This document shows positions 3,846 through 62,422 of a DNA stretch of 64,000 nt, piece after piece. Source of the DNA: an uncultured Alphaproteobacteria bacterium (GTDB lineage: Bacteria > Pseudomonadota > Alphaproteobacteria > Rs-D84). The DNA lies in NCBI GenBank assembly GCA_964017835.1, contig CAXHMP010000001.1, forward strand, positions 9,820 to 73,819, in the 5' to 3' direction. The first letter of the stretch is position 1. Each line of letters starts with the position of its first letter. Below the pieces are notes generated by a model. It was given only the letters and a program-made list of their open reading frames with translations, was not told the origin of the DNA and did not search any database. The position numbers and the translations under genes were made by a program.

Positions 3846-4262
3846 TTATTCGTTCACCGTTTCGGGAATCACGTCAATTTGTTCAAAGACGATTTCCTGG
3901 CCGTCGGCGTTTTGCAAAATCAATTTGTTGTCATCGATTTCGTATGTCTGGGCGCCTTGCATGAACTGGAAATATCCGCGTTCAACATCCATCGCCTTTT
4001 GCGGCCCCATCATCATGGTTGTGGCCATGTCGCCGAATTTGATTTTATTGCCATCGACAATATACGGCGCGTTGTACAGGTTCACAATCTGGCCGTGGAC
4101 GGTCATGTCCGTCGGGTCAAACGCCAACGCGATGTTCACCCCATCCTGGGTCGCCATGTAATTGTTCCCTTTTAACATTTCGGGATTCTGGGGCGTGTTC
4201 GCCCGGTCACAGGCCGTCAATGCCGCCACAGCGCCAATCATGGCAAAGTATTTCAAGTTCAT
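3846..4262 (-). CDS. META/HslJ-like domain lipoprotein
   Basis: Lipoprotein signal MNLKYFAMIGAVAALTAC. A strong SD (AGGGGG) lies 7 nt upstream of the ATG at 4262. The ORF-track start at 4442 is an N-terminal over-extension. Confidence 0.55.
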   Translation of the reverse strand: MNLKYFAMIGAVAALTACDRANTPQNPEMLKGNNYMATQDGVNIALAFDPTDMTVHGQIVNLYNAPYIVDGNKIKFGDMATTMMMGPQKAMDVERGYFQFMQGAQTYEIDDNKLILQNADGQEIVFEQIDVIPETVNE

Positions 4263-4343
4263 TATTTCCCCCTTTGGTTTAGACATCAGTATATCATGAT
4301 GTTTTAAAAATGAAATCTGTATTTTTGCCCATTTTGATTTTTT

Positions 4344-4372
4344 TGAAATAAAAAAACCGGGTTGCCCCGGTT
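4344..4372 (-). terminator. Rho-independent terminator of rnj
   Basis: A ccggggcaacccgg hairpin followed by T7 on the minus strand, 5 nt after the stop codon. Confidence 0.55.
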
Positions 4373-4374
4373 GT

Positions 4375-6201
4375 TTATTTCTGCACAAAATGCACACTGT
4401 ATTGCGGTTTTTTGTCCGCCCCCAGCGCCGCACGTACAACACGGTTCGACGCCACCTGGACCGCGCGAATCAGATTTTCGCGGTCTTTGCGTTCCGTCTT
4501 GGTCAGATTGTCAATCGCGCGTGTGATTTCAATTTGAATCTGGCGCTTCATAAATCCGGTGTCATCGGTTTCAAAGATACCGGCACTGGATACTTCGGGA
4601 ACGCCCTTGAGGAATCCGCGCTTGTCCACCGGCAGGGTGACAAACACCGCCCCGTTGGTCGCAATTTTCTTGCGGTTTTTATAAACCTGGTCGTTGGCGG
4701 ACCGTTCGGTTTCGCCCTCCATCACGATAAAGCCGGTCTGGACCGTTTCCGTGACGTACGGCTGCGCCCCATCGGCCAGCGCAATCATTTCACCGTTATG
4801 GACGACCATCATAAATTTCGCACCGCCGCGTTCCATCGCCATTTTGCCGTTCAGCATTTCGTTGATGTAATCGCCGTGCATGGGGACCGCCACCTGGGGG
4901 TGGACCATGTCGTAAAAGCGTTCAAATTCCGGCCGGCCGGCATGTCCGCTGGCGTGGACATTGTTGGTGTCAAAAATCGTGTGCGTACGGATACCCATGC
5001 GCGCCAATTTGTTATACAGATACGACACGTCTTGTTCGCGGCCCGGAATAATAATGGCGCTGAAAATCACTGTGTCGGTCGGTTGTAATTTCATTTCCTT
5101 GACATGTCCCCGGCACAAACGCGTCAGCATGGCAAACTGTTCCCCTTGGGACCCGGTCAAGAATATGGCCTGTTTTTCAGCCGGCAGGTCTTTGATTTCG
5201 CTGTGCAGATAGACCTCGTCTTTGTCCAGGTATCCAAAATCAATTCCCATTTCCCGGAATTCCGGCAGGCCAACATACGGCACCGGGTTGGGATTACTGC
5301 GTTCCTTGATTGCGGCAACGCGGCCCGATGCGCGCGCGGCGGCGGCAAACATTTTCAAACGGGCAATCGACCGGGAATATCCCGTGACAATCACGCGGCC
5401 CGGCGCGTTTTTCATAATTTCGGTCAGGGAATCGCGTACCTCGGTTTCAGTCGTTTGTTTGGTTTGACGCGATACAGACGTTGAATCCGACATCACCGCC
5501 AGCAATTTCGGGTCGGACCCAATTTCACCCAGACGGGCGAAATCTGTCGGCGCTTCGACCGGGTTGTCGTCGTTAAAGGTCCAGTCACCCGTATGCAGTA
5601 TTTTACCCGCCGGCGTTTTGATGATAATCATCTGGGCTTCGGGTACAGAATGGGTGACGTGGAACGTTTCGATTTCAAACGGGTCCAATTTAAAGGACGC
5701 GCCGTTGTGGTCAAAGATGACGATATCTTTGTTCGGATTGAAATCGATTTCGCAACCCGCAAACGTGCGGCGGATGATTTCACCCGGGAAACGCGTGCAG
5801 TAAATCGGTTTGCGGAATTTGGGCCAAATGTATTTCAAAGCACCAATATGGTCTTCGTGGCCATGGGTGATGACAAAGCCGACCACATCCTTTTTATGCT
5901 TTTCCAACCAGGTTGTGTCACAGTATTGAACATCGCCGGCACCGATTTCTTCTTCTAAAAATCCCATACCACAGTCCACGACCAGGTATTTTCCCTTGTA
6001 CTTGTACACGTACATGTTTTGGCCGACATGTTCCAGACCGCCCAGCGCGACGAAATAGATTTTATCATCGTTTTTGTCGTTTTCATGTTTGGGCATCGGC
6101 GCAATTTTGGCCGGTGTTTTGGACTTAGTCTTGTTTTTTTGTTGCGGTTGTGCCGGCGTCGCTTTGGGCGCCGGGGCTGATTTTTCACGTACTTTGACCA
6201 T
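4375..6201 (-). CDS. rnj: Ribonuclease J (metallo-beta-lactamase/beta-CASP family)
   Basis: Carries the HGHEDHIGAL motif and MBL, beta-CASP and C-terminal domains. A Lys/Pro-rich N-terminal extension is typical of alphaproteobacterial RNase J. Confidence 0.9.
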   Translation of the reverse strand: MVKVREKSAPAPKATPAQPQQKNKTKSKTPAKIAPMPKHENDKNDDKIYFVALGGLEHVGQNMYVYKYKGKYLVVDCGMGFLEEEIGAGDVQYCDTTWLEKHKKDVVGFVITHGHEDHIGALKYIWPKFRKPIYCTRFPGEIIRRTFAGCEIDFNPNKDIVIFDHNGASFKLDPFEIETFHVTHSVPEAQMIIIKTPAGKILHTGDWTFNDDNPVEAPTDFARLGEIGSDPKLLAVMSDSTSVSRQTKQTTETEVRDSLTEIMKNAPGRVIVTGYSRSIARLKMFAAAARASGRVAAIKERSNPNPVPYVGLPEFREMGIDFGYLDKDEVYLHSEIKDLPAEKQAIFLTGSQGEQFAMLTRLCRGHVKEMKLQPTDTVIFSAIIIPGREQDVSYLYNKLARMGIRTHTIFDTNNVHASGHAGRPEFERFYDMVHPQVAVPMHGDYINEMLNGKMAMERGGAKFMMVVHNGEMIALADGAQPYVTETVQTGFIVMEGETERSANDQVYKNRKKIATNGAVFVTLPVDKRGFLKGVPEVSSAGIFETDDTGFMKRQIQIEITRAIDNLTKTERKDRENLIRAVQVASNRVVRAALGADKKPQYSVHFVQK

Positions 6202-6464: not shown

Positions 6465-8225
6465 TCATTTCACAATTTCCCGGAATATTTGGGCCGGTAT
6501 TGTCCCACCGGTAATCTTGGACCCCATGGGTGTAAAGTCATCGTTGCCCATCCAAACGCCAATAATCATATTGCGTGTGGCCCCGATAAACCATGCGTCG
6601 CGGTTACCGTTGCTGGTGCCGGTCTTGCCGCCCAAGACGTTTGGTGTCGCTGCGCGGTGGCCGGTCCCGCCCGGTTTGACCACATCGCCCAACAGTTGGG
6701 TCATGTATTCCACGGTTGCCGGCCGCAGGACATGTATCGGGTCGGATGGGTTGCGTTCATACAGCACAGCGCCGGCCGGGGTGGTAATCTTGGTTATGGA
6801 ATAGGGGCGAACCGATTCCCCGTCGTTCCAAATCACGGCGTAAATCGTTGTCAAATCCAACAATGTCATTTCCGACGCCCCCAGCACGGTCGAATATTCC
6901 CGCCGCAGGCGCGTCCCCACCCCCAGCCGACCCGCCATATCCAGAACCGTGTCCAGACCATATTGCTGGGTCAGTTTCAAGGGGACCGAATTAACGCTTT
7001 TGGCGAATGCGGTCGCCAGGGTAATGTCGCCATAGTATTTTTCGTTATAGTTTTTCGGGTTATAATCCCCGATGGCAAAGGGTGAATCATTGACATATGA
7101 TTCCGGGGTTAAACCGTTTTCCAATGCCACCAGATAAACGACGGGTTTAAAACTGCTGCCGGGTTGACGGCGGGCCAGGGCGCGGTTATATTGGCTGGCC
7201 TGGTAATCGGCGCCGCCCGACATCGCGCGGATGGCCCCATCACGCGTCATGGCGACAACGGCACCCTGGTACTGGTCAACGTGGGCTGTAATTGTGTCGG
7301 CAATGCGTTCCTGTAAATCCCGGTCCATTGTGGTATAGACGAACAAATCGGATTCAAATCCGCCCACCCGCGACCGCACTTCGTCTAGGACAAAATCCGT
7401 CCAATACCGATACAAGTTTGTGTCCGGAATCGGTTTGGCCGGCCCCAGTTGCCGTGCCGCGGTGCGTGCCGCCGCCAAAGTAATGTATCCCTGGCGCACC
7501 ATTTCTTGTAAAATAACACGGGCGCGGGCGATGTTTTTTTCCGGGTTTTTCAGCGGACTGTATGTTGTCGGCGCCTTTAGCATGGCGGCAATCTGGGCGC
7601 TTTGCGCAATGGTCAGGTTTTGCGCCGGCGTTTGAAACAGCGCGCGCGCCGCCGCATCAATTCCCCGCATGCCCCCCACCAATGACACCCGGTTCATGTA
7701 CAAGTCCAGAATTTGATTCTTGGTAAACCGGTTTTCCAGCCAATAGGATAAAATCAGTTCCTGGATTTTTCGCGATAATGTTTTGTGCCGCGACAGAAAG
7801 ATGTTTTTGGCAGTTTGCTGGGTAATACTGGACCCGCCGGCGGAAATGCGCCCGCGCATCATGTTGGACACAACCGCGCGCATGATGCCGCGCATGTCAA
7901 TGGGGCCGTGCAGGAAAAAGCGTTTGTCTTCGATGGCGACAATGGATTGCCACACGTGCGGCGGCAACGTTTCCACCGACACAGGCGCGCCCATTATGCG
8001 GTTTGCACTGCGGATTTCATTTCCGTTTTTATCCAGGAATGTCACCGCCGCCGGCCGCGTTTCATGCAATATCGCGTCCAGTGACGGCATTTGTAAAAAC
8101 ACAATCAGGGTATAAATTGCCGCCGCTGCCAATGCTGCCATGCCCAGGTTAAATCCCCACAGCAACAATCGCCCCCGCATTGACGTTTTTTTGACTTGTT
8201 CCGGTTCTTTTGCACGTGCGAACAC
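6465..8225 (-). CDS. Class A penicillin-binding protein (transglycosylase/transpeptidase)
   Basis: GT51 motifs (EDKRFFLHGPID, GGSSITQQ) plus transpeptidase motifs SSFKP, SVNS and KTGT. It has an N-terminal TM anchor. Confidence 0.85.
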   Translation of the reverse strand: MFARAKEPEQVKKTSMRGRLLLWGFNLGMAALAAAAIYTLIVFLQMPSLDAILHETRPAAVTFLDKNGNEIRSANRIMGAPVSVETLPPHVWQSIVAIEDKRFFLHGPIDMRGIMRAVVSNMMRGRISAGGSSITQQTAKNIFLSRHKTLSRKIQELILSYWLENRFTKNQILDLYMNRVSLVGGMRGIDAAARALFQTPAQNLTIAQSAQIAAMLKAPTTYSPLKNPEKNIARARVILQEMVRQGYITLAAARTAARQLGPAKPIPDTNLYRYWTDFVLDEVRSRVGGFESDLFVYTTMDRDLQERIADTITAHVDQYQGAVVAMTRDGAIRAMSGGADYQASQYNRALARRQPGSSFKPVVYLVALENGLTPESYVNDSPFAIGDYNPKNYNEKYYGDITLATAFAKSVNSVPLKLTQQYGLDTVLDMAGRLGVGTRLRREYSTVLGASEMTLLDLTTIYAVIWNDGESVRPYSITKITTPAGAVLYERNPSDPIHVLRPATVEYMTQLLGDVVKPGGTGHRAATPNVLGGKTGTSNGNRDAWFIGATRNMIIGVWMGNDDFTPMGSKITGGTIPAQIFREIVK

Positions 8226-8246
8226 CTGATGACCCCCATGTATCCA

Positions 8247-9770
8247 TTAAATTTTAACGCCGTATTTTCCGCGATTGATGGGGCGATATGACAAAGCCTC
8301 GGCCAGGTCGCCCATTTCAATATTTTCGCCCCCGCGCAGGTCGGCAATCGTGCGTGCGATACGCTTAATCCGATTATATCCCCGGGCCGACATGCCCATC
8401 TTTTCCGCGGCGGTATTTAAAAACTGGGTCAATTCGGGTGTCAACGGTGCGGCCGCATCCAAGGCCGCCCCATCCAGGTGGGCGTTGACGCATCCCTGGC
8501 GCGATATCTGGCGTTCGCGTGCGGCGGTGACGCGTGCGCGGACGGTTGCACTGGATTCCGCCGGCGTGTCGTCTGCATTGTTCATTTCCCATGGATTGAC
8601 CGCGTCGACATCGACGTGCAGGTCAATGCGGTCCAACAAAGGACCCGAAATTTTATTCTGGTACGCCTCGGCACAGCGGGGGGCGCGTGAACACGACATG
8701 GCGGCGTTGCCCAAATGGCCGCAGGGACATGGATTCATGGCCGCGATTAATTGAAAGCGTGCGGGGTATGTCGCATTGCGCCGCGCGCGTGAAATCATGA
8801 TTTTACCCGATTCCATCGGCTGGCGCAGGATTTCCAGTGTCGACCGGTTGAATTCGGGCAATTCGTCCAAAAACAACACCCCATTATGCGCCAGGGATAT
8901 TTCCCCCGGCCGTGCGTTTGCCCCGCCGCCCGCCAGGGAGACTGCACTGGACGTGTGATGAACACTGCGGAACGGGCGGGTTGAAACCAGCGACCGGCCG
9001 TTTAATTGTCCCGCGATGGAATAAATAATTGACGATTCCAAAATTTCATCCGCCGTCATATCCGGCATAATGGTCGGTAAACGTGATGCCAACATGGTCT
9101 TGCCCGACCCCGGTGGCCCAATCATCAGCATTGCGTGTCCGCCCGCCGCCGCGATTTCCAGCGCCCGTTTGGCCGCAGATTGGCCCCGAACCTCGGCCAA
9201 GTCGCCGGGGGTGTCAATTGATTGGTTGGGAACCACAGCATCTGGGGTGGGTAAAATTTGCGTTCCCTTGAAATGGTTGATTAAATCCAATACGTGACCC
9301 GGCGCCAATATGTCAGTGTGGCCGGACATGCGTGCCTCGGCTCCTTGGGCGGCGGGACAGATAATCCCCAGATTATTTTGGTTGGCCCACACGGCCGCCG
9401 GTAAAACACCGCCCGTTGGCACGATGGCGCCGTTCAGGCCCACTTCGCCCATAATGACATATTTTGATATTTGGACTTCGTCCAGGGCGCCCATCGCGCA
9501 TAATATTCCGCATAAAATCGGCAGGTCAAAGTGCGACCCCGACTTTTCCACGTCCGCCGGTGACAAATTCACAGTCAAACGTTTTGGGGGCATCGACAGG
9601 TTTAACGCCGCCAACACATTACGGATGCGTTCGGCCGATTCCTTGACCGCGCGGTCCGCCAATCCGATGATATTAAATTCAGGCTTTGATAATCCCGCGG
9701 ATAATTGTACCTGGACATCAATACGGGTTGCGTCCATGCCGTTGAACATAATGGAATTTAATGAAATCAT
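8247..9770 (-). CDS. comM: YifB/ComM-family Mg-chelatase-like AAA+ ATPase
   Basis: Walker A motif GPPGSGKT. ComM-like N-terminal and C-terminal domains are present, including the CPCG zinc ribbon. Confidence 0.85.
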   Translation of the reverse strand: MISLNSIMFNGMDATRIDVQVQLSAGLSKPEFNIIGLADRAVKESAERIRNVLAALNLSMPPKRLTVNLSPADVEKSGSHFDLPILCGILCAMGALDEVQISKYVIMGEVGLNGAIVPTGGVLPAAVWANQNNLGIICPAAQGAEARMSGHTDILAPGHVLDLINHFKGTQILPTPDAVVPNQSIDTPGDLAEVRGQSAAKRALEIAAAGGHAMLMIGPPGSGKTMLASRLPTIMPDMTADEILESSIIYSIAGQLNGRSLVSTRPFRSVHHTSSAVSLAGGGANARPGEISLAHNGVLFLDELPEFNRSTLEILRQPMESGKIMISRARRNATYPARFQLIAAMNPCPCGHLGNAAMSCSRAPRCAEAYQNKISGPLLDRIDLHVDVDAVNPWEMNNADDTPAESSATVRARVTAARERQISRQGCVNAHLDGAALDAAAPLTPELTQFLNTAAEKMGMSARGYNRIKRIARTIADLRGGENIEMGDLAEALSYRPINRGKYGVKI

Positions 9771-9841
9771 GCCTGTATATTATAACTTGCGCAAAGTCAT
9801 TTCAAGTTATAATATGTCGGTCAAACAAAAGGATTTAAAAT

Positions 9842-10720
9842 ATGCCGGCAAAAAACAGAAACACTGCGCGCGAATGGTTTAATACATTATTTTACGGGGC
9901 CTTGATTGCGATTGCGTTTCGCAGTTTTTTGCTGGAACCGTTCAATATTCCGTCCGGGTCAATGATTCCGACACTGCACGTCGGGGACCATATCTTTGTT
10001 GAAAAGTGGTCGTATGGGTATTCGCGTTATTCATTTCCGTTTGGGTCGTGGCGTTTGTGGAATGGGCGCTTTTTTGCGTCTGAACCCGATGTCGGCGATG
10101 TTATCGTTTTCCGTAATCCGATTGATGAACGGCTGGATTATGTCAAGCGTCTGATTGCCCGGCCCGGTGACACCGTCCAGGTGATGGGCGGGCGCCTGTA
10201 TATCAATGGTAAAATAGTGGAACGCACCAATCCGCGTCCGTACATTGTGGCAAATTTGCCGCGGTCGCTGCGTGGGGTGGGGTATTATCGCGACGGTATT
10301 TCGGTCCGGGGCAACAAAATCTGGAAAGACAACGCGCCATTTGAATACAATTACACCATTGAATACAAATCGGATAAATTCTGTAACATGTATCCAAGCG
10401 AATGCGGTGTGTTCCAGGTGACCGAGTACACCGAAACATTACCCAACGGCGTATCGCACAGCATTATTGAATACGCCGACGATGCCATGTATGACAATAC
10501 GCCGGCCTTGACGGTACCCGACGGCCACTATTTCTTTATGGGTGACAATCGCGACAACAGTGCCGACAGCCGCAGTCCCATGGGATTTGTCCCACGCGAC
10601 AATTTGTTGGGCCGGGTATGGTTTGTCTGGTATTCACATAATTATCATTCATCGATGCTGGCGGTGTGGAATTGGGGGGATAAAATGCGCTGGTCACGAT
10701 TTGGCATGGGGATTAAATAA
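9842..10720 (+). CDS. lepB: Signal peptidase I
   Basis: Contains the SGSMIPTL Ser box and the GDNRDNSADSR box. Confidence 0.9.
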   Translation: MPAKNRNTAREWFNTLFYGALIAIAFRSFLLEPFNIPSGSMIPTLHVGDHIFVEKWSYGYSRYSFPFGSWRLWNGRFFASEPDVGDVIVFRNPIDERLDYVKRLIARPGDTVQVMGGRLYINGKIVERTNPRPYIVANLPRSLRGVGYYRDGISVRGNKIWKDNAPFEYNYTIEYKSDKFCNMYPSECGVFQVTEYTETLPNGVSHSIIEYADDAMYDNTPALTVPDGHYFFMGDNRDNSADSRSPMGFVPRDNLLGRVWFVWYSHNYHSSMLAVWNWGDKMRWSRFGMGIK

Positions 10721-13816: not shown

Positions 13817-14076
13817 TAGGTGATGAAAAAAATTTACATTCAATAAAGAACCCGCATCGGATAAACCCTCAAACCTATCGCGGGATTGCGGTAATTTGCC
13901 TGTTGATGGGCTTGGTTATTTTGGTGGATTTCCTGGGGCGTCAGGTGACGCCGGACATGCCGAAAAAAGAAGTGCAAAAGTCGACCGAGGCCGCCGCCCA
14001 TATGAATTCTTTGCGTCAGAAAATCGCCCATCGTGACAGTGTTATCCGTGCAATGCAAATGCAAAAGGTAAAATAA
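13813..14076 (+). CDS. Hypothetical membrane-anchored coiled-coil protein
   Basis: 87 aa with one TM. Its start overlaps the era stop. Confidence 0.3.
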   Translation: MIGDEKNLHSIKNPHRINPQTYRGIAVICLLMGLVILVDFLGRQVTPDMPKKEVQKSTEAAAHMNSLRQKIAHRDSVIRAMQMQKVK

Positions 14077-14077
14077 G

Positions 14078-14272
14078 ATGGGATTGAAACACAAAGAATT
14101 GGATGACGTTAGCGTGCGTTATGATGCCGCGACCCAGGTTGTCACATTAACCCGCGGGGAACGGTCGTTGGATATTATGCTGTTTGATGAAGGGCGAATT
14201 CGGCAATTATGGGCCGCCGCCGCCCAGATTTATGCCCAAAACACGCGTCAGAAAAAAGCAAAACAAAAATAA
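14078..14272 (+). CDS. Hypothetical small protein
   Basis: 64-aa ORF tightly packed between conserved genes. Confidence 0.25.
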   Translation: MGLKHKELDDVSVRYDAATQVVTLTRGERSLDIMLFDEGRIRQLWAAAAQIYAQNTRQKKAKQK

Positions 14273-14293
14273 TGTCTGGGATATCCAAGTTAA

Positions 14294-15316
14294 ATGAAAA
14301 CATCGGATTTTGATTTTGAATTGCCGCCTGAATTGATTGCGTCGCATCCCTTGGAATGCCGCGATGCCTCCCGCATGCTGGTGGTGGATGGACAATCGTT
14401 GGCCGATAAACATATTCGGGATTTTTTGGATTATATTCGGCCGGGCGATGTTGTGGTCTTTAATAATTCACGCGTGATTCCGGCGCGCTTTATGGCCTCG
14501 AACCATGAAATCACATTGCACACCGCTGTGAATGATGGTTCATGGTGGGGGCTGTGTAAAAAGTTCAATAAAATTCCTGTGGGGGCGGAACTGACCCTGG
14601 ACGACGGGACGACGGCGACGGTTTTGGCGCATGATGATGACAGCGGCCTGAAACTGAAATTTAACTGTGATAACCTGATGGACGTTCTGGACCGGGTGGG
14701 GAAAATGCCGCTGCCCCCGTATATGAAGCGTGACGCCGAGGTCGCCGACCGTGACCGGTATCAAACGGTCTATGCCGGGCCACTGGGGTCCATGGCGGCC
14801 CCGACGGCCGGATTGCATTTTACGCCCGAACTGTTGGATGCCATTCGGGCGCGTGGCGCGCAAATTGTGAATGTGACTTTGCACGTGGGGGCCGGCACCT
14901 GGATGCCGGTCAAGACCGAAGATTTATCCCAGCACAAGATGCACAGCGAATGGTGCCAAATCACCCCGGACCAGGCGGTCATTATCAACGCCGCGCCGCG
15001 TGTTATTGCCGTCGGGACAACGTCCATGCGGACACTGGAAAGTGCGGCAATTCGCGCCCGCGTGTCCGGCGCAAATGCCCGTGTGGTGCCGTTTTGCGGG
15101 ACAACAGATATCTTTATCACACCGGGCTATACATTCGGGGCGGTGGATGTATTGCTGACCAATTTTCATTTGCCGAAATCGACGTTGTTTATGTTGGTGT
15201 CGGCGTTTGCCGGTGTGGATGAAATGCGCGGCGCATACGCGCATGCGGTGGCGGAAAAATACCGGTTCTTTTCATATGGCGATTGCTGTTTATTATTCCA
15301 AGGGAATGCGTCATGA
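14294..15316 (+). CDS. queA: S-adenosylmethionine:tRNA ribosyltransferase-isomerase
   Basis: The N-terminus FDFELPPELIA and the overall length match QueA. Confidence 0.9.
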   Translation: MKTSDFDFELPPELIASHPLECRDASRMLVVDGQSLADKHIRDFLDYIRPGDVVVFNNSRVIPARFMASNHEITLHTAVNDGSWWGLCKKFNKIPVGAELTLDDGTTATVLAHDDDSGLKLKFNCDNLMDVLDRVGKMPLPPYMKRDAEVADRDRYQTVYAGPLGSMAAPTAGLHFTPELLDAIRARGAQIVNVTLHVGAGTWMPVKTEDLSQHKMHSEWCQITPDQAVIINAAPRVIAVGTTSMRTLESAAIRARVSGANARVVPFCGTTDIFITPGYTFGAVDVLLTNFHLPKSTLFMLVSAFAGVDEMRGAYAHAVAEKYRFFSYGDCCLLFQGNAS

Positions 15317-29114: not shown

Positions 29115-29453
29115 ATGACGACAATCAGCAATCTTAAACCGGCGCGAACCAAGGCCGAAGCAAGGGAACGTGGCGCAAATGGCGGAAAAAAATCCGGCCA
29201 GGCGCGGCGCGAAAAAAAACTTATGCGCGAGGCCCTGGAAAAACGTATCGGCGCATCGCTGGACGCGGTTACTCAGGCACTGATTGATAAGGCCGCAACT
29301 GGTGACGTTCGTGCATATGAGGTCATCCGCGACACGTTGGGCGAAAAGCCGACTGACAAAGTTCAGATTGCAGGGCTGATTGAGCGCAGCGAGGCCGAGG
29401 AACTTGAAAATGAAATCTTATTCCCAGGCGGAAAGACGCAAGGCCGCACTTAG
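29115..29453 (+). CDS. Putative terminase small subunit
   Basis: Basic, HTH-like N-terminus. Its position directly upstream of, and overlapping, the large terminase supports the call. Confidence 0.4.
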   Translation: MTTISNLKPARTKAEARERGANGGKKSGQARREKKLMREALEKRIGASLDAVTQALIDKAATGDVRAYEVIRDTLGEKPTDKVQIAGLIERSEAEELENEILFPGGKTQGRT

Positions 29454-30711
29454 CTTTATTTTCGGCCGTCCGGTGGAATTGTTGCACCGTCTGGGACTGC
29501 CCGATACGACAGAAATGCATGGCCAGTGGCTGGTGGATTACCTGCGCAATTCCGACGAATTGACAATCATGGCCCACCGCGAGGCGTTTAAGACGTCAAT
29601 CCTATGTGTTGGCCTGGCCTTGAAACTGATTTTGTTTCCGCGTCGCAATCTGGGATTTTTCCGCAAGACCGACGATAAGGTGCGCGAGATTATACGTGGG
29701 ACACAACGGCATTTACGCACGCCGTTGCTGATAACCCTGTCGGATATGATTTGGGGATTTCCTATTGAGATGACCCGGGCAACGGATAATGAAATAGACA
29801 CCAATTACTATGTGCCGACAAAGGGCGAGGTTGCGCTTTATGGGTGTGGAATAAACGGCAGTATAACCAGCCGTCACTTTAACGATGTCACAACTGATGA
29901 TATCGTGGACCAGGACGACCGATATTACGATGCCGAGCGTGTAAAGACGCATCGTTTCCTGGACGAACTGGAAAATACGCAAAATCGTGGCGGGGTGCGT
30001 GCGAATTTTTGCACACCGTGGCACCGGAACGACGCGACAACGCGATTCCGGAATATCAAAAAGTTTCCAGCTAGCATGACGGGCTTGTTTACGTCGGCCC
30101 AGTTGCAACAAAAGCAACGCGCAATGGCCCCGGAGCTGTATGCGATAAATTACGAACTGGACCTGTCAGCGGCGAATGAATCTTTGTTCGCAAAACTGAC
30201 GCGCAAAGACGAGTGGAATCCGAACCGTGAGGTATTTGCATATCTTGACCCGTCACACAAGGGCGGCGACTACACCGCGCTGTGTATTGGCGCAATGTGC
30301 TTTGAACGTTTGCAAATTACCGGGTTTGTTTGGAAAAAGCCTTATTATGAAATCTTTGATAATGGGGACTTGGAAAAATATTGCATGTATCTGGGAGTCC
30401 AGGACCTGACGATAGAGACGAACGGGGTCGGCGATATGCCGGTGCGCCTGGCGCGAAAAATCAGTCGCGAGCGCATGGGGGGGCTGATGGCGGTGCACGG
30501 TATAAACCATACGGACAATAAAATGGCTCGAATCCAGACGGCGGCCGCATTTTGCGATTCCATAGACATCGTCACTTTTGACGACGTTGCGGAAAGTCGC
30601 GAGTTCGCGGCCCAGGTATGTGATTTTGATGCGTCGGCCAAACATGACGACGCCCCAGATTCTGTGGCGGGCGTTATGGAGGCCATGAGATTGATAAGGA
30701 TAAAAAAATAA
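29410..30711 (+). CDS. Terminase large subunit
   Basis: ATPase and nuclease domains of terminase-like architecture. SD gagga lies before the ATG at 29410. Confidence 0.8.
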   Translation: MKSYSQAERRKAALSFIFGRPVELLHRLGLPDTTEMHGQWLVDYLRNSDELTIMAHREAFKTSILCVGLALKLILFPRRNLGFFRKTDDKVREIIRGTQRHLRTPLLITLSDMIWGFPIEMTRATDNEIDTNYYVPTKGEVALYGCGINGSITSRHFNDVTTDDIVDQDDRYYDAERVKTHRFLDELENTQNRGGVRANFCTPWHRNDATTRFRNIKKFPASMTGLFTSAQLQQKQRAMAPELYAINYELDLSAANESLFAKLTRKDEWNPNREVFAYLDPSHKGGDYTALCIGAMCFERLQITGFVWKKPYYEIFDNGDLEKYCMYLGVQDLTIETNGVGDMPVRLARKISRERMGGLMAVHGINHTDNKMARIQTAAAFCDSIDIVTFDDVAESREFAAQVCDFDASAKHDDAPDSVAGVMEAMRLIRIKK

Positions 30712-31751
30712 TGGCAAGTTTTTCCGAAAAAATCACTGCAGGATTCAGTCGATTGTGTGGCCGTGCGGATGCTGAGGCATCCATATCGGACGTTCCGTAT
30801 CCTTTTGTTGTGGAAATGGATGCAGAAACCTTTATGAAACTGAAGATTGAGGGGCTGTATTCGCGTATTTTGCGCGATTGTATAAAGCGGTCGGTCTGGA
30901 CTCATAAGGACAAGGACGCCATCGAACGCAGTTTTTACGACTGTTTTGAAAATAGCGAGAATAATTGCGGCTTGGTGGGCTTTATAGCCAAAGCAATGTA
31001 TGCACGAAAATCTAAAACATTGGTTTGGGTTGACGGAGTTTTGCGCGAGGCAACCCGTGACGAGGCAAAAACAATCAAAGAAGATTATGTAAACATTGCC
31101 AAATCTGATAAAGGCGTCATTATCAATTTTAAAGACTATGAACTGACTCAAAAATTGCGGCTTTATTTTCGACAAATGTATGAGGTCAATATGGCCCGAA
31201 GCACTGCTGTAAATGTCGCCGCAGCGCTGAAAATCCAGATTGATAAACTGCGGGAAATGGTCGCAAATTCTGATGCGGACCAGGCGATAAAGCAAGCGCG
31301 ACAAATTGCAGAGGCCCTGAAGAAAGGACGGGCGGTGGTGGTTGACGGCATGGACAAGATTGAGGGCTTGTCGTCTATAAATACAGAACCATTGATTGTG
31401 GCGCGCGATGAAATATATTCCGAAATTGCGCAGGATACAGGATTGCCAACATCATATATATCTGGTGTGGCGACAACCGGGGCATCGGTCATCGGTGATG
31501 CTGATATCAACCGTGAGGCAGAGGGCATAGAGCCATACTGGCTGTCAATCTGGAAACCAATCGTCACAAATTTGTATGGAATTCAATCTATGGGATACCG
31601 GACTGACAAATGGCGGGCATTGGAGTCAAAAGTTCGCAGTGTTTCTATGATTGAAACATTGGACACCCTGACAGAAGAAGAAAAGCGGGAATTTGCCGCT
31701 AAAACCTTGGAATTAGATAATGCCCCGCAGGATGAAAAACAAAAAGTTTAA
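30711..31751 (+). CDS. Putative portal protein
   Basis: Located between the terminase and the MuF-like gene. Only 346 aa, so the call is tentative. Confidence 0.45.
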   Translation: MASFSEKITAGFSRLCGRADAEASISDVPYPFVVEMDAETFMKLKIEGLYSRILRDCIKRSVWTHKDKDAIERSFYDCFENSENNCGLVGFIAKAMYARKSKTLVWVDGVLREATRDEAKTIKEDYVNIAKSDKGVIINFKDYELTQKLRLYFRQMYEVNMARSTAVNVAAALKIQIDKLREMVANSDADQAIKQARQIAEALKKGRAVVVDGMDKIEGLSSINTEPLIVARDEIYSEIAQDTGLPTSYISGVATTGASVIGDADINREAEGIEPYWLSIWKPIVTNLYGIQSMGYRTDKWRALESKVRSVSMIETLDTLTEEEKREFAAKTLELDNAPQDEKQKV

Positions 31752-32253
31752 GACCGTCGGCCGGTTTATGCCGGATGAATTTTTGGACGAGGTATTGCCG
31801 CCAAAAGTTTGGAAAAAGAACTTTCTGTCTGGCAATTTGAATGACTTGGGCGTCCAAAAACGCATCGTTAAAACGTTGGTGGCAGGTTCTGCAATATCGC
31901 AAAAAGACCTGTCAATGACGATTGACAATGTGCTGGTTGGCTATAAACGTCGCGGCAAGATGTTATCTGCCGCCGGTGTCAAAGCCTATAAGGCCGCCGC
32001 AATCAATGATGAAACGTTGCTTAAACAGCGCGTCCGTGATGCGGTTGTGTCTGCCCAGGTTAAATCCGAGATAAAACAGCATCGCGGCGGATATTATCGC
32101 TGGTTGCCGAGTTCGGCAGAAAATCCAGACCCAGAGCACCAGGTGCTTTACGGCCATGTCTTTCGTGTCGGCGAGGGCGACAAAGACGGCAATATGCCGG
32201 GCGAACGCTGGGGATGTCAATGCGGCATTGAGTGGCTGGTTGAGGACAAGTAA
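31720..32253 (+). CDS. Phage Mu F-like (SPP1 gp7) head morphogenesis protein
   Basis: C-terminal motif HQVLYGHVF...PGERWGCQCG. Confidence 0.6.
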   Translation: MPRRMKNKKFKTVGRFMPDEFLDEVLPPKVWKKNFLSGNLNDLGVQKRIVKTLVAGSAISQKDLSMTIDNVLVGYKRRGKMLSAAGVKAYKAAAINDETLLKQRVRDAVVSAQVKSEIKQHRGGYYRWLPSSAENPDPEHQVLYGHVFRVGEGDKDGNMPGERWGCQCGIEWLVEDK

Positions 32254-47103: not shown

Positions 47104-47304
47104 TTTTTACCTTTTTATTACAGACATATTATACACACGATTGTACACACAGTCAAGTAAAAAAACATAAAAAAATTAAAAAATGTGGCACAAAATATAG
47201 CACAAAAATTTTGTGCGCAATTTTTTATTAAAAAATAACTCTTGACTTTTGGCGGAAATACGGGCATTATCTCAAAAAGATGTGTGCGTAAAGGTGTAGC
47301 AATC

Positions 47305-59198: not shown

Positions 59199-59891
59199 AA
59201 GGTAACTCCAATGATATGCAAGCAGTGTTGCCATCCGGCAATCCGAACGGTTTTTTATGGTTAATTTTGCTTACATACGATTCATTGGACGAATACCTTT
59301 TGTTGGTTAATGATACCAAGACTATATGACAAAAAAATGCAAAGTCAACAAATTTGTGTAATGATATTTAAAGACAGCAGGCAAGGGGAAATTTGCTATG
59401 GCTTGACTTTTTCGTATACTTTATCTGTTTTTCAAAAATTATGTTCAATCAAACAAAGAATCAATTGATATCGGTGCCTATTTCGGTGGAAGGTCTATGT
59501 TGGCCGAATATAAACGCGGCTGGCAAAACAGAACGGGCCAGTTTTTTGATTTAATATTGCATCAAAGATAAAAATATCTATTAAGATTCAATCACACTGC
59601 GTTTAGGTTTTGGCATTTATTGCCTTTCGCAGAACCGCGGCATTTTATAACGCTTCCAGGAACATACGTGCCATTTTATGTGGTATGAATTTGCTTACTC
59701 TGTATCGAAAAAATCCGCTACACAATGCCACCGCCGCCTTGCGGCTGAATACATCGCCGAACAATTACCGGATATTGAGATTGTGTATTTATAAATTGAC
59801 CATTTTGTTATTATCGTACAAAAAAAACAAGAACAGAGCCAGACATACAACACTGCCAATAAAATCAAAATACTTCTTCATCAATTATATT

Positions 59892-60230
59892 TTACATTAA
59901 CCAATATAATAGCGATTGAATTATCGGCCAGACAAAAATCCCTATAAATAATCCTGCTAATGGCATCCATAACAATCGTGTTTTATATACAGGGACTAGT
60001 TTATATGTAAGAAACACGAGTCCTGCCAATACACATATAATACTGACAACATCATAGTTAGCCATGCATAAATATCGTGATTTTTCAGATAAATCATAAC
60101 AAAAAGGCCACCACACTTCATTGTATTTTGTAATACGTCCCATTGCCGATAAATCCATCAAAAATACAAACAATGCCCCCCACAGAATCACAGCATTGCA
60201 ATACATGTTTTTTTGCCAATTTATTTTCAT
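59892..60230 (-). CDS. Small polytopic membrane protein (immunity candidate)
   Basis: 112 aa, 3-4 TM segments. Located immediately downstream of the toxin gene in an AT-rich islet. Confidence 0.4.
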   Translation of the reverse strand: MKINWQKNMYCNAVILWGALFVFLMDLSAMGRITKYNEVWWPFCYDLSEKSRYLCMANYDVVSIICVLAGLVFLTYKLVPVYKTRLLWMPLAGLFIGIFVWPIIQSLLYWLM

Positions 60231-60243
60231 GTTACGTTAGTCC

Positions 60244-61371
60244 CTAATATTTTACCTCTACAATTAAATCTTTACCGACAAATTCGAATAGCGCAACAAA
60301 ATTTTTAATATTACTTGTCATATCAATGCAACCGGCAGACCCAGGCGCCCAGCCGCCATGAATGCTGAAATTATCACGACCATATGTATTGGTTTCTTTG
60401 GACGGTTCTAACCAGACACGCGAGCTTCCCCAAGACATTGAAGACCCGGGCCAAGCACCCCTATCAGTAACTTTAGTCGTCCAGCCAACAAGCCAATCTG
60501 TAGCAGACATAAACTGTAGTTTTTCCTGTCTTGCAACATACATCCCTTCTGGGATTGGACCTGTGGATTTCTGGTCTTGATATTCTGGGCTTTGGTAACC
60601 GGAACGACCAGACACCGCATCCCATGATATTGACGGTTTGTTATCTAGATACAATGTAAATTTCTTGCCATCAAATACTGCATAATAACCCGGCTTGGTA
60701 TTAACCGGCTTCTCAAATGTTGCTTTTTCTGGCGGGGTGTTGGCCATCTTTTCTGGCGTTGATGCTGGTTCCTTTGCTGAAAATGGCTTGCTGCTGATAG
60801 TATTGCCATCTGAATCTATTACATCCTCGGTTATGCTGCATCGGCAATTGGGATGCACCGGGGTGGAAGGGATGTCATCTTCGCTTTCATATATTTCGCC
60901 ATCGCGCGATGCACACGCGGAACAGGTGTTATCGCCATCTTCACTATGCCAACGCCATACGCGCCGTGGTTTGTCGTTTGGCATATCATCATCGTCCTCT
61001 GGCAGGTCAAGGGTATAAACCTCTAGCTGTTTATTTTCTATTGTGCCCAACGGCATCAGAACACGAACATCTATGGTTTCTTCTAAGTCTACATAGTCTT
61101 CAACATCTATCCGGCGACCGGCTTCTTCATATTCTGCTTCGGCATTGGCTATTGCTTCTTCTAGCGCAGACTCTAATGCCTTTTGGGCCTTACGAAATTG
61201 CTCTAATGTCATATCGTATTTTGGTTCGGTCATGCGTCCGGTGGCATCTTGGGCCAACGCACCCGGATACAGCATTTTTAAATATTTTTCTGCCATAGCA
61301 TACGTATTGCTGTTTTTATCCATATATGCGGGCGATGACATCAGCGTTCGCAAAAATTGTGGTGTTTTCAT
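60244..61371 (-). CDS. Orphan polymorphic toxin: MuF C-terminal fragment fused to a Tlde1/YkuD-like L,D-transpeptidase domain
   Basis: MuF motif CSACASRDGEIY...PVHPNCRCS in the middle. C-terminal GPIPEGMYV...FSIHGGWAPGSAGCID (His, then Ser-x-Gly-Cys). Confidence 0.5.
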   Translation of the reverse strand: MKTPQFLRTLMSSPAYMDKNSNTYAMAEKYLKMLYPGALAQDATGRMTEPKYDMTLEQFRKAQKALESALEEAIANAEAEYEEAGRRIDVEDYVDLEETIDVRVLMPLGTIENKQLEVYTLDLPEDDDDMPNDKPRRVWRWHSEDGDNTCSACASRDGEIYESEDDIPSTPVHPNCRCSITEDVIDSDGNTISSKPFSAKEPASTPEKMANTPPEKATFEKPVNTKPGYYAVFDGKKFTLYLDNKPSISWDAVSGRSGYQSPEYQDQKSTGPIPEGMYVARQEKLQFMSATDWLVGWTTKVTDRGAWPGSSMSWGSSRVWLEPSKETNTYGRDNFSIHGGWAPGSAGCIDMTSNIKNFVALFEFVGKDLIVEVKY

Positions 61372-61489
61372 TTGTGATTCCTTTGCTTAAATAAAAAAAG
61401 CCCGCGTGCGGCGGGACATAAAAAAACGGCGACAAAAGTCGTCCTTGTTCATGATTTTATTATATCACAAATTGCAATAAAAATCAATA

Positions 61490-61569
61490 GTATCCCTTCG
61501 TCCCGCCAGTTAAAATCAAAAACCACCCGTTCGGGTGGTTTTAAGATTTTAATTTCTGGCGGAGACGAA
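61490..61569. repeat. 80-bp direct repeat, copy 1 (tRNA-Ser trailer with terminator hairpin plus 13 nt of the tRNA 3' end)
   Basis: Identical to 61694..61773. Hairpin aaaaccacccgttcgggtggtttt. Confidence 0.7.
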
Positions 61570-61693
61570 TTCCTGTCCTCGACAAACAATAACAAAAATC
61601 ACAAAAAACTCTGATTAACCACATCCGTTTTTTGGATTTTTGTAAGATTGTTCGTCTTCGTATTCGTGCGGCGCCGACATCGTCGGCTGGCAC

Positions 61694-61779
61694 GTATCCC
61701 TTCGTCCCGCCAGTTAAAATCAAAAACCACCCGTTCGGGTGGTTTTAAGATTTTAATTTCTGGCGGAGACGAAGGGATT
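61694..61779. repeat. 80-bp direct repeat, copy 2, plus a 19-nt copy of the tRNA-Ser 3' end
   Basis: tggcggagacgaagggatt is identical to the 3' end of tRNA-Ser at 61931..61949. Confidence 0.7.
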
Positions 61780-61930
61780 GACTTCGCCGACCTTGCAAAA
61801 TCGTGCTGCGCACGACCGGCGTACGCCCGTCCGCCTTTTTGCGGCGGTTCGAACCCTTTCTTCGGGTTCGAATCCCAGACGACGACAGCCGATAATAAAA
61901 AATGCCCAACCGGGCATTTTTTATTATCAG

Positions 61931-62021
61931 TGGCGGAGACGAAGGGATTCGAACCCTTGATACCGTTGCCGGTATACTACATTTCCAATGTAGCGCACTA
62001 GACCAACTATGCGACGTCTCC
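61931..62021 (-). tRNA. tRNA-Ser(GGA)
   Basis: 91-nt cloverleaf with a long variable arm. Anticodon loop TTGGAAA. Encoded CCA. Confidence 0.85.
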
Positions 62022-62029
62022 GTATCTTG

Positions 62030-62422
62030 TTATTCGGCGGCAACTTCGGCCATTTCTTCGCCGGCGATTTCCGCCGCGGTTTCGTCCGAAATATCCGCCG
62101 CGTCATCAACCAATGCGTTTTCCAATTCGGCATCGATTTCACGCAACATCGGATCTTCGTTTTCGACTTCCAATGTTTCTTCGCCCGCGTTCGAAATCGG
62201 ATTTTCTTTGTACGATTGCACAAATTCATGACGAACGCCCGCGATATCCAATTTGCCACTGGCAATTTCGCGCAGGGCGACAACCGTCAGTTTGTCGTCA
62301 TCTTTGTCCACAACAGATTCCACGCCACCGTTCAAATCACGAACACGCTGGGACGCCAACATCCCCAGTTCAAAACGGCTGTCTACAAATGGTAAAGTAT
62401 CTGAATTTGTTGTACGGGCCAT
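62030..62422 (-). CDS. rpoZ: DNA-directed RNA polymerase subunit omega
   Basis: N-terminal [17 protein letters not shown]...[13 protein letters not shown] matches RpoZ. Acidic C-terminal tail. Confidence 0.8.

Follow-up and report, generated by a model that had tools for sequence, protein, structure and literature searches.

MuF polymorphic toxins have been described from prophage head modules, with 96% of chromosomal muf genes situated in prophages or prophage remnants (PMC5576092). Their toxin cargo consists of nucleases, metallopeptidases, ADP-ribosyltransferases, alarmone synthetases, and deaminases (PMC5576092, PMC3482391, PMC11699363); peptidoglycan and lysozyme are never mentioned in the main text of PMC5576092. 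The SPP1 gp7 protein reaches the capsid by binding the portal (PMC6316719), and the role and delivery route of the MuF toxins are still unknown (PMC11699363). The Tlde1 effectors are single-domain or Rhs-fused type VI secretion system (T6SS) effectors accompanied by a periplasmic immunity protein, and mutation of the catalytic H121/C131 abolishes toxicity (bioRxiv 10.1101/2020.02.18.954545; PMC9638812). A literature search found no paper that names both Tlde1 and MuF. Described here is a locus that carries parts of both. It is found in a 64,000 nucleotide (nt) stretch of DNA from an uncultured alphaproteobacterium of the lineage Rs-D84 (GCA_964017835.1, contig CAXHMP010000001.1, positions 9,820 to 73,819), which is referred to as the window, and it consists of a gene for a predicted toxin of 375 amino acids (aa) followed by a gene for a 112 aa membrane protein. 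The locus is very probably a toxin-immunity cassette of the polymorphic type.

Domains of the predicted toxin

The toxin gene (60244..61371) and the 112 aa gene (59892..60230) are both on the (−) strand, and the second starts 13 nt past the stop codon of the first. Both open reading frames are present as stated in the initial annotation, which was made from the letters of the window, as are the motifs it quoted from the translation: CSACASRDG at aa 150–158, PVHPNCRCS at 171–179, GPIPEGMYV at 271–279, and FSIHGGWAPGSAGCID at 335–350. The toxin consists of a predicted N-terminal delivery module (N-module), a linker, and a Tlde1 domain, all encoded on the (−) strand. An AlphaFold model with a mean predicted local distance difference test (pLDDT) value of 74.9 displays two domains and a disordered linker. 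No signal peptide or hydrophobic segment is present in the toxin, and the maximum 19-residue hydropathy is 1.13.

The carboxyl part, aa 229–375 (60247..60687), is assigned by Pfam, profile search, and Foldseek to a predicted Tlde1-type L,D-carboxypeptidase/transpeptidase domain. Pfam Tlde1_dom (PF10908) matches aa 252–364 with 34.9 bits (cut-off 30.1), and YkuD (PF03734) is sub-threshold with 18.5 bits vs a cut-off of 23.4. A profile of 92 homologs matches the Tlde1a structure 7UMA (E = 4.4e-5), with FSIHGGxxPGSAGCID aligned to FYIHDSTKGYSHGCIEV. The top three Foldseek hits are the Tlde1a structures 7UO3, 7UO8, and 7UMA (E about 5e-6, TM-score 0.56–0.58, probability 1.00), followed by YkuD and LdtMt2. 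The predicted catalytic residues His338 (codon 60358..60360) and Cys348 (codon 60328..60330) are invariant in the 92 sequences; the spacing of 10 residues is the same as that of H121/C131, and thus supports a Tlde1-type dyad. With PF10908 above cut-off, Tlde1a as the best structural hit, and an invariant dyad, the C-terminal domain is a predicted toxin domain of the Tlde1/LD-transpeptidase fold, which agrees with what had been read from the motifs in the initial annotation. A housekeeping YkuD L,D-transpeptidase was also considered, and was rejected with PF03734 under its cut-off and no hydrophobic N-terminus for Sec-dependent export.

The N-module, aa 1–200 (60772..61371), is constant across the family and acidic, with an isoelectric point of 4.4. 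Conserved blocks are found across the 200 aa, and the start M-x-x-P-x-F-L is common to the family. A zinc knuckle of the MuF type is situated at aa 136–185 (60817..60966), W139xWH…C150xxC153…H173PNC176xC178, and is detected with Pfam, TIGRFAM, and PHROGs. The Phage_Mu_F match covers aa 137–180 and profile positions 64–111/112 with 25.9 bits, under the cut-off of 29.6. TIGR01641 (SPP1 gp7) and several PHROG minor head families match the same ~45 residues, and a BFVD search gives local matches of 43–67 columns to minor capsid and MuF proteins (probability 0.97–0.99). The knuckle columns are invariant in the family alignments.

Only the C-terminal end of a MuF domain is therefore represented, as had been proposed: the MuF homology is confined to ~50 residues that correspond to the end of the MuF domain, and ~135 aa have no MuF counterpart. 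The toxin does not contain a complete MuF domain (PF04233, PF06152, MuF3, or MuF4), and fold searches gave no structural match for the N-module outside the knuckle. We conclude that the N-module was probably derived from a portal-adjacent head protein. The linker, aa 186–228 (60688..60816), is partly disordered (pLDDT <50 at aa 200–215) and is the most variable segment, with gaps in the alignment.

Outside the family, the proteins P0169, P0178, P0155, P0179, and P0203 also carry the knuckle alone (profile positions ~60–111). These are fusions to Peptidase_M23, to an N-terminal region resembling a lytic transglycosylase by eye, or to unknown domains.

A conserved family with exchangeable toxin ends

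A database search with the toxin sequence showed 577 hits, and >90 of these were aligned full length; a look-up by exact sequence gave no record for the window protein. Nearly all of the best 120 of the 577 hits are 364–383 aa, with 100% query coverage and identity down to 49%; named hits are annotated 'DUF2778/tlde1 domain-containing protein' and come from metagenome-assembled genomes (MAGs) of Alphaproteobacteria. One of the related loci, which are designated here by L numbers, is from a Candidatus Enterousia avicola MAG (L004). Enterousia (order Rs-D84) comprises uncultured gut bacteria with genomes of <~1 Mb that lack standard nutrient transporters (PMC12306168). The ratio of nonsynonymous to synonymous substitution (dN/dS) is 0.13–0.23 in the N-module and 0.11–0.25 in the C-terminal domain. 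Because the full-length architecture is kept in >90 homologs under purifying selection, the gene does not appear to be a decay fragment; as judged by these alignments it is a complete member of a conserved, previously undescribed family. The initial annotation had described it as an orphan MuF fragment. It belongs instead to a full-length family with a common start, a conserved promoter-like site and ribosome-binding site (RBS), and purifying selection on both modules.

The complete N-module has a restricted distribution. A search with aa 1–200 found it in just a few dozen clusters (50% identity), and the remaining hits are to the knuckle alone. When 2.9 million viral contigs were searched with N-module patterns, 192 relatives were found, and among the 80 listed all but one are knuckle-only; the exception, L072, is an ordinary TerL-portal-short MuF module, in which the knuckle forms the C-terminus of the short MuF. 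A tblastn search of a phage record collection gave a single weak match, to the Tlde1 part only, and full-length alignment against viral contigs gave only Tlde1-like C-terminal matches.

Alignment and Pfam show that one N-module is fused to five C-terminal architectures: Tlde1; PG_binding_1 with Tlde1; GH108 with PG_binding_3; GH24 lysozyme; and Peptidase_M23. All five are peptidoglycan enzymes, and the junction is sharp and lies just after HPNCxC. Orphan cassettes consisting of a toxin end and an immunity gene are found in L003, L004, L006, L007, L008, L009, L011, L106, and L107. In L003 and L004, an N-module-GH108 gene is followed by a truncated Tlde1 end, a 112 aa gene 94–99% identical to that of the window, and a further gene for a transmembrane (TM) protein. 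In L007, three orphan cassettes come after a complete toxin gene, and the orphan at 4098..4847 begins inside the knuckle motif. The orphan cassettes of L009, L011, L106, and L107 are of the GH24 or GH108 type. The survival of orphan toxin-immunity pairs, suggested earlier for the window, is thus borne out in the relatives, where truncated Tlde1 ends stand beside intact immunity genes, but the window itself has just a 24-codon immunity remnant.

In blastn comparisons, the toxin end plus immunity gene is 95–98% identical to the window in loci where the N-module is just 78–87% identical. Synonymous divergence (dS) from L001 is 0.09 for the C-terminal domain and 0.51 for the N-module. Mosaic exchange of toxin ends is thus seen both in the blastn identities and in dS. 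The knuckle is the apparent recombination junction ahead of the variable C-terminal domain. A constant N-terminal part with variable ends, an adjacent partner that co-varies with the end (synteny and covariation), and orphan cassettes are the features expected of polymorphic toxins, and all are found in this family.

Toxins of a second family, in which an unrelated N-terminus precedes PG_binding_1 and Tlde1 and which have their own TM partner, are found in chromosomal loci and in a phage-like element alike (L003 8716..9705(−), L002 15797..16756(−), L108 5025..6029). Reverse-transcriptase genes adjoin toxin or orphan cassettes in L006 (7919..9304(−)) and L111 (6843..8112), one of them with a helix-turn-helix (HTH) partner. 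The toxin hot spots may double as defence islands.

Candidate immunity partners

The partner found next to a toxin varies with the toxin end. Tlde1 toxins are accompanied by a TM protein of ~110–128 aa, GH24 toxins by a lipoprotein or an opposite-strand protein of ~132–139 aa, and GH108 toxins by an opposite-strand secreted protein of 131–161 aa. There is further correspondence within the Tlde1 type: the window subtype is found with family I partners (C-x10-C loop), the L002/L009 subtype with family II ('WGxEAMG'), and the L011 subtype with a third family. Partner genes diverge much faster than toxin domains, and in a search with the window immunity protein six clusters only resemble the window type.

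The 112 aa protein of the window (59892..60230, (−) strand) is a family I member with three hydrophobic/TM segments at 9–33, 53–83, and 85–112. A conserved C-x10-C…NYD motif is situated in its predicted periplasmic loop, the topology being that given by the positive-inside rule. In L003, L004, L007, and L008, family I genes of 94–99% identity have remained whole next to toxin ends that are truncated. Because the partners co-vary with toxin subtype and persist beside truncated ends, immunity rather than a holin function is indicated. Hydropathy, covariation, and persistence support the 112 aa membrane protein as the candidate cognate immunity protein, and the initial annotation, which had proposed this role for the downstream membrane protein, is strengthened on this point.

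The viral contig L013 (IMGVR_UViG_3300011008_002745), at 6704..10341, encodes a 282 aa protein with a Tlde1 domain and, after it, three family II TM proteins that are paralogs. Farther downstream are a lysozyme-like protein with an acidic N-terminus and an opposite-strand secreted partner.

Relationship to phage genes

The resident prophage extends over ~19.5–47.3 kb of the window and carries an integrase beside tRNA-Gly, TerL (29380..30711), a gene for a tail fibre, and a fragment of tRNA-Gly at 47284. The cassette lies in an islet 12 kb outside the prophage, and the nearest terminase is 30 kb off, within the prophage. The prophage has a MuF-like open reading frame of its own (31720..32253; 29.0 bits, just under cut-off), which ends in …WGCQCGIEW and is without the CxxC…HPNCxC knuckle. 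The separate location and the different C-terminus of the prophage MuF protein are both as the initial annotation gave them. BLASTP shows no similarity between the toxin and this open reading frame, thus the knuckle does not appear to have been copied from the resident prophage. Between TerL and the end of the MuF-like frame (30711..32253, (+) strand), a 346 aa open reading frame with no family match (30711..31751) overlaps the 177 aa MuF-like frame by 32 nt. The two could be a portal/MuF pair or a single frameshifted gene.

The locus had at first been taken for a one-off survival outside a phage. Instead, the phage-detached state is typical of the window subgroup, all sampled members of which are found among housekeeping genes. 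In the window, L001, and L009–L012, the toxin gene is directly downstream of tRNA-Ser(GGA), tRNA-Ser(TGA), or tRNA-His. No T6SS genes or Rhs/PAAR fusions are found in the window flanks or in loci with called genes.

Divergent subgroups contain members with phage neighbours, in L108–L110. In L110, an N-module toxin is situated directly after a portal gene of the Head-tail_con (T7) type, and the genes run terminase, portal, toxin, partner, GH108 orphan, partner, Bbp19. In L108, an N-module protein is part of a T7-type element that has genes for scaffold, capsid, tail, and terminase, and it is encoded downstream of those for capsid and tail. The N-module member of L109 abuts a reduced copy of the L108-type element. 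Other members of the same subgroup are standalone, and neither the window nor the chromosomal loci have homologs of the L108/L109 phage-like element proteins. The terminase of L108 is represented by an ATPase fragment and a nuclease domain as separate open reading frames (7354..7911 and 13976..14803) 6 kb apart, with an N-module-M23 toxin, an HTH regulator, and DnaB between them; in L109 and L110 Pfam picks up the terminase nuclease domain only.

Genomic setting of the cassette

The islet (59235..61930) has a GC content of 41.2% vs 48.0% for the window, in keeping with its earlier description as a low-GC islet, and the immunity gene has 33.3%. GC at third codon positions is 0.32–0.40 in the islet vs 0.50–0.61 in flanking genes. 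The flanks are housekeeping genes by Pfam and ARAGORN, with an ABC-F ATPase on one side and tRNA-Ser(GGA), rpoZ, and a MiaB-like gene on the other. The islet starts at the 3′ end of tRNA-Ser(GGA) (61931..62021, (−) strand; ARAGORN, Rfam), and rpoZ (62030..62422) and the MiaB-like gene lie beyond; this tRNA border had been overlooked in the initial annotation. The order rpoZ-tRNA-Ser(GGA)-toxin recurs in L009 and L010.

Repeats that resemble the tRNA end are found in the interval between tRNA-Ser and the cassette (61490..61930). The 3′ end of tRNA-Ser is repeated exactly over 19 nt, in direct orientation (AATCCCTTCGTCTCCGCCA), at 61761..61779 on the (−) strand, and this repeat has the appearance of an att-like scar; the sequence has 2 matches within the window, with a chance expectation of 0.02. 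A palindromic 80-nt unit is present on the (−) strand in two exact copies (61694..61773 and 61490..61569, spanning 61490..61773), one copy of which is 90% conserved in L009. The ends of the unit are a copy of the last 13 nt of tRNA-Ser, and a terminator-like hairpin is enclosed (terminator scan). T-arm-like fragments are seen at about 61845..61880 and no integrase is present in the interval.

The cassette shared among loci corresponds to window positions 61488 to ~59690, ~1.8 kb, and its flanks vary from locus to locus (blastn). At its upstream edge (61488) is a promoter-like site, TTGATT-17-(TG)TATAAT (61459..61487, (−) strand; 10/12 matches in the scan), which is kept in L002–L005, L007, L009, and L011. 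The RBS of the toxin gene is conserved across the family. Between promoter and start codon, the leader carries two tandem elements of a hairpin plus T-run (61428..61443 and 61401..61415, (−) strand). The promoter-like site and these two terminator-like hairpins (61401..61487) are kept in loci with merely 54–56% protein identity. Compensatory changes in 2/6 pairs of hairpin 1 amount to weak covariation, and no claim on leader RNA is built upon it. The hairpins may act as an attenuator or as a 5′ stabiliser.

Downstream of the 112 aa gene is a remnant of a family IV immunity gene, with 24 codons (MKKYFDFIGSVVCLALFLFF…; 59813..59884, (−) strand; tblastn 79–88% identity). This gene is full length (100–105 aa) in L002, L003, L004, L008, and L009. 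The downstream cassette end is a ~108-bp element (59687..59794, (−) strand; blastn), which is also found elsewhere, at differing positions (L003 4424..4530, L005 3238..3311, L006 1961..2067, L007 1813..1898).

Proposed function and alternative explanations

The C-terminal domain would act in the target periplasm, where, via His338/Cys348, it would remove or exchange the D-Ala that ends the tetrapeptide stems of peptidoglycan and so weaken the wall. The co-transcribed 112 aa protein of the inner membrane would shield the producer and its kin, probably by means of the Cys-containing loop in the periplasm. The N-module is probably a reduced MuF-type head module; it would be the unchanging part used for delivery and also the junction at which toxin-end/immunity cassettes are swapped. 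In the window lineage, the cassette would have left the phage and now occupy a tRNA-flanked chromosomal hot spot. The delivery route that we prefer would begin with loading via the portal, into capsids made by a phage-like element from another part of the genome, and would end with the toxin being ejected into the envelope of the target. Capsid-mediated delivery is the most economical delivery hypothesis; it is put forward tentatively, and for the window we only infer it. It gains indirect support because the L110 relative sits immediately after a portal gene. The combined statement of a polymorphic cassette with capsid delivery is considered fairly probable. That chromosomal knuckle-only toxins are loaded in trans into capsids of T7-type elements, possibly domesticated, and are used for kin discrimination or for lysing neighbours for nutrients is speculative and rather unlikely.

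Several points weigh against the reading as a capsid-delivered toxin with a membrane immunity protein. Only ~50 residues of MuF homology are left, and the knuckle may or may not be what binds the portal. In the neighbourhood of the cassette in the window, and in at least 13 related loci, genes for a portal, a terminase, a T6SS, or another secretion system are absent. The MuF-like protein of the prophage is without the knuckle and unrelated, so a cognate capsid in this genome is hypothetical. The immunity protein known for Tlde1 is found in the periplasm (DUF2195) and not in a membrane, and the two terminator-like leader hairpins could hold expression low. Toxicity, periplasmic site of action, mode of immunity, and delivery route are predictions from sequence.

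Every C-terminal domain on the N-module is a peptidoglycan enzyme, which would also suit a virion-internal cell-wall hydrolase that is ejected to aid DNA entry, with the membrane partner protecting lysogens or excluding superinfection. The internal core protein gp16 of T7 helps cross peptidoglycan during DNA entry. The position of the L108 member downstream of capsid and tail genes, that of the L110 member right after the portal, and the similar Tlde1 protein with TM partners on the viral contig L013 are in keeping with such an enzyme. However, genes of the window subgroup stand apart from any phage, at conserved sites in the chromosome, where persistence of such an enzyme under purifying selection would be unexpected, and orphan arrays together with partners specific to each subtype mark antagonistic polymorphic toxins rather than an enzyme built into the virion. 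A virion hydrolase is thus held to be improbable. There is also a small probability that the protein diffuses as a bacteriocin of the pesticin kind after lysis or leakage and is then imported through the outer membrane of the target, with the N-module used for receptor binding and translocation and the knuckle a mere structural zinc ribbon. An N-terminal part of ~200 aa with a lysozyme or peptidase of ~165 aa resembles pesticin, the extreme N-terminus is invariant (M1, P4, F6, L7), the GH24 and GH108 immunity genes, which code for envelope proteins, run on the opposite strand, and no secretion genes are found nearby. But a TonB-box-like consensus, a lysis gene, or a clue to a receptor was not found, and the portal-adjacent position in L110 and the phage-element neighbours in L108 and L109 are left unexplained. 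A TonB-box reading of the invariant N-terminus was dropped, with no consensus in its support.

A peptidoglycan hydrolase followed by a small protein with three TM segments looks like an endolysin-holin pair, and modular catalytic domains would fit a lysis cassette that releases phage, gene transfer agent particles, or proteins. The partners of GH24 and GH108 are, however, a lipoprotein or secreted proteins and not holins, the TM partners are specific to Tlde1 subtype, and intact partner genes persist next to truncated enzyme ends. A phage lysis context is lacking at the window locus, and the 200 aa N-module is foreign to endolysins, which leaves a lysis cassette very improbable. A holin reading of the 112 aa protein was rejected on partner diversity and orphan-cassette logic. 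A non-functional relic, with a 5′-truncated MuF-toxin gene left to decay in the AT-rich islet after its prophage was lost, would agree with a match to only the end of the MuF profile, with a truncated neighbouring immunity gene, and with the att-like repeat on the tRNA side and the low GC, which suggest past mobile-element activity. Such decay is hardly credible in view of the full length and identical start in >90 homologs with identity down to 49%, a dN/dS of 0.11–0.25, and the conserved promoter-like site and RBS. The same architecture is found at the same chromosomal site in a species with a protein just 56% identical.

If in trans capsid loading is true, phage-like particles would be delivery vehicles for cell-wall toxins. 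A ~200 aa module with the MuF knuckle alone points to what may suffice for trafficking, and members found both right after a portal and far from phage make packaging in trans directly testable. With peptidoglycan-attacking cargo throughout, delivery must cross the target envelope. The family also indicates that gut Alphaproteobacteria related to Candidatus Enterousia maintain diversifying arsenals of cell-wall toxins and immunity proteins, and at least three unannotated membrane immunity families are added as candidates for Tlde1-type toxins.

Comparison with known systems

The family shares with the MuF polymorphic toxins (Zhang 2012, PMC3482391; Jamet 2017, PMC5576092; Apk2/Bxa, PMC11699363) a constant MuF-homologous N-terminal part, a variable toxin, and a downstream immunity open reading frame. 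The L110 relative is immediately after a portal gene, which is the defining position of muf, and capsid targeting through the portal is the delivery logic proposed in both cases. In contrast to those toxins, only the zinc knuckle, the last ~50 residues of the MuF domain, is present here, and the C-terminal domains are all peptidoglycan enzymes predicted to act in the periplasm. The portal associated with the family is a Head-tail_con protein, as in T7. The window gene is not after a portal; it is chromosomal, tRNA-adjacent, and without phage genes.

With the Tlde1/Tae5 (DUF2778) T6SS effectors and Tldi1 it has in common the Pfam family, the fold, the His-x9-Cys spacing, a predicted periplasmic attack on stem peptides, and the bicistronic layout. 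It differs from them in having no T6SS genes and no Rhs/PAAR fusion, with a phage-derived N-module in their place, as predicted above, and in the motif SAGC vs SHGC. The candidate immunity proteins here span the membrane several times and fall into at least three unrelated families, whereas that of Tlde1 is a periplasmic DUF2195 protein.

Contact-dependent inhibition (CDI), Rhs, and MafB loci likewise show a full-length gene followed by displaced C-terminal fragments, each with an immunity gene, and a short reused junction, which here is HPNCxC. The N-terminal part is unrelated to those of CDI, Rhs, and MafB, and the cassettes, at ~1.8 kb, are small and lie next to tRNA genes. Pesticin and colicin M-type bacteriocins are of similar size, with a peptidoglycan-targeting C-terminal domain and envelope-located immunity proteins. 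Their import domains, however, have no detectable sequence or fold similarity here, and there is no plasmid or lysis-gene context. Polymorphic MuF toxins themselves are already known; what is new is a MuF-knuckle module with exchangeable cell-wall enzymes, usually chromosomal.

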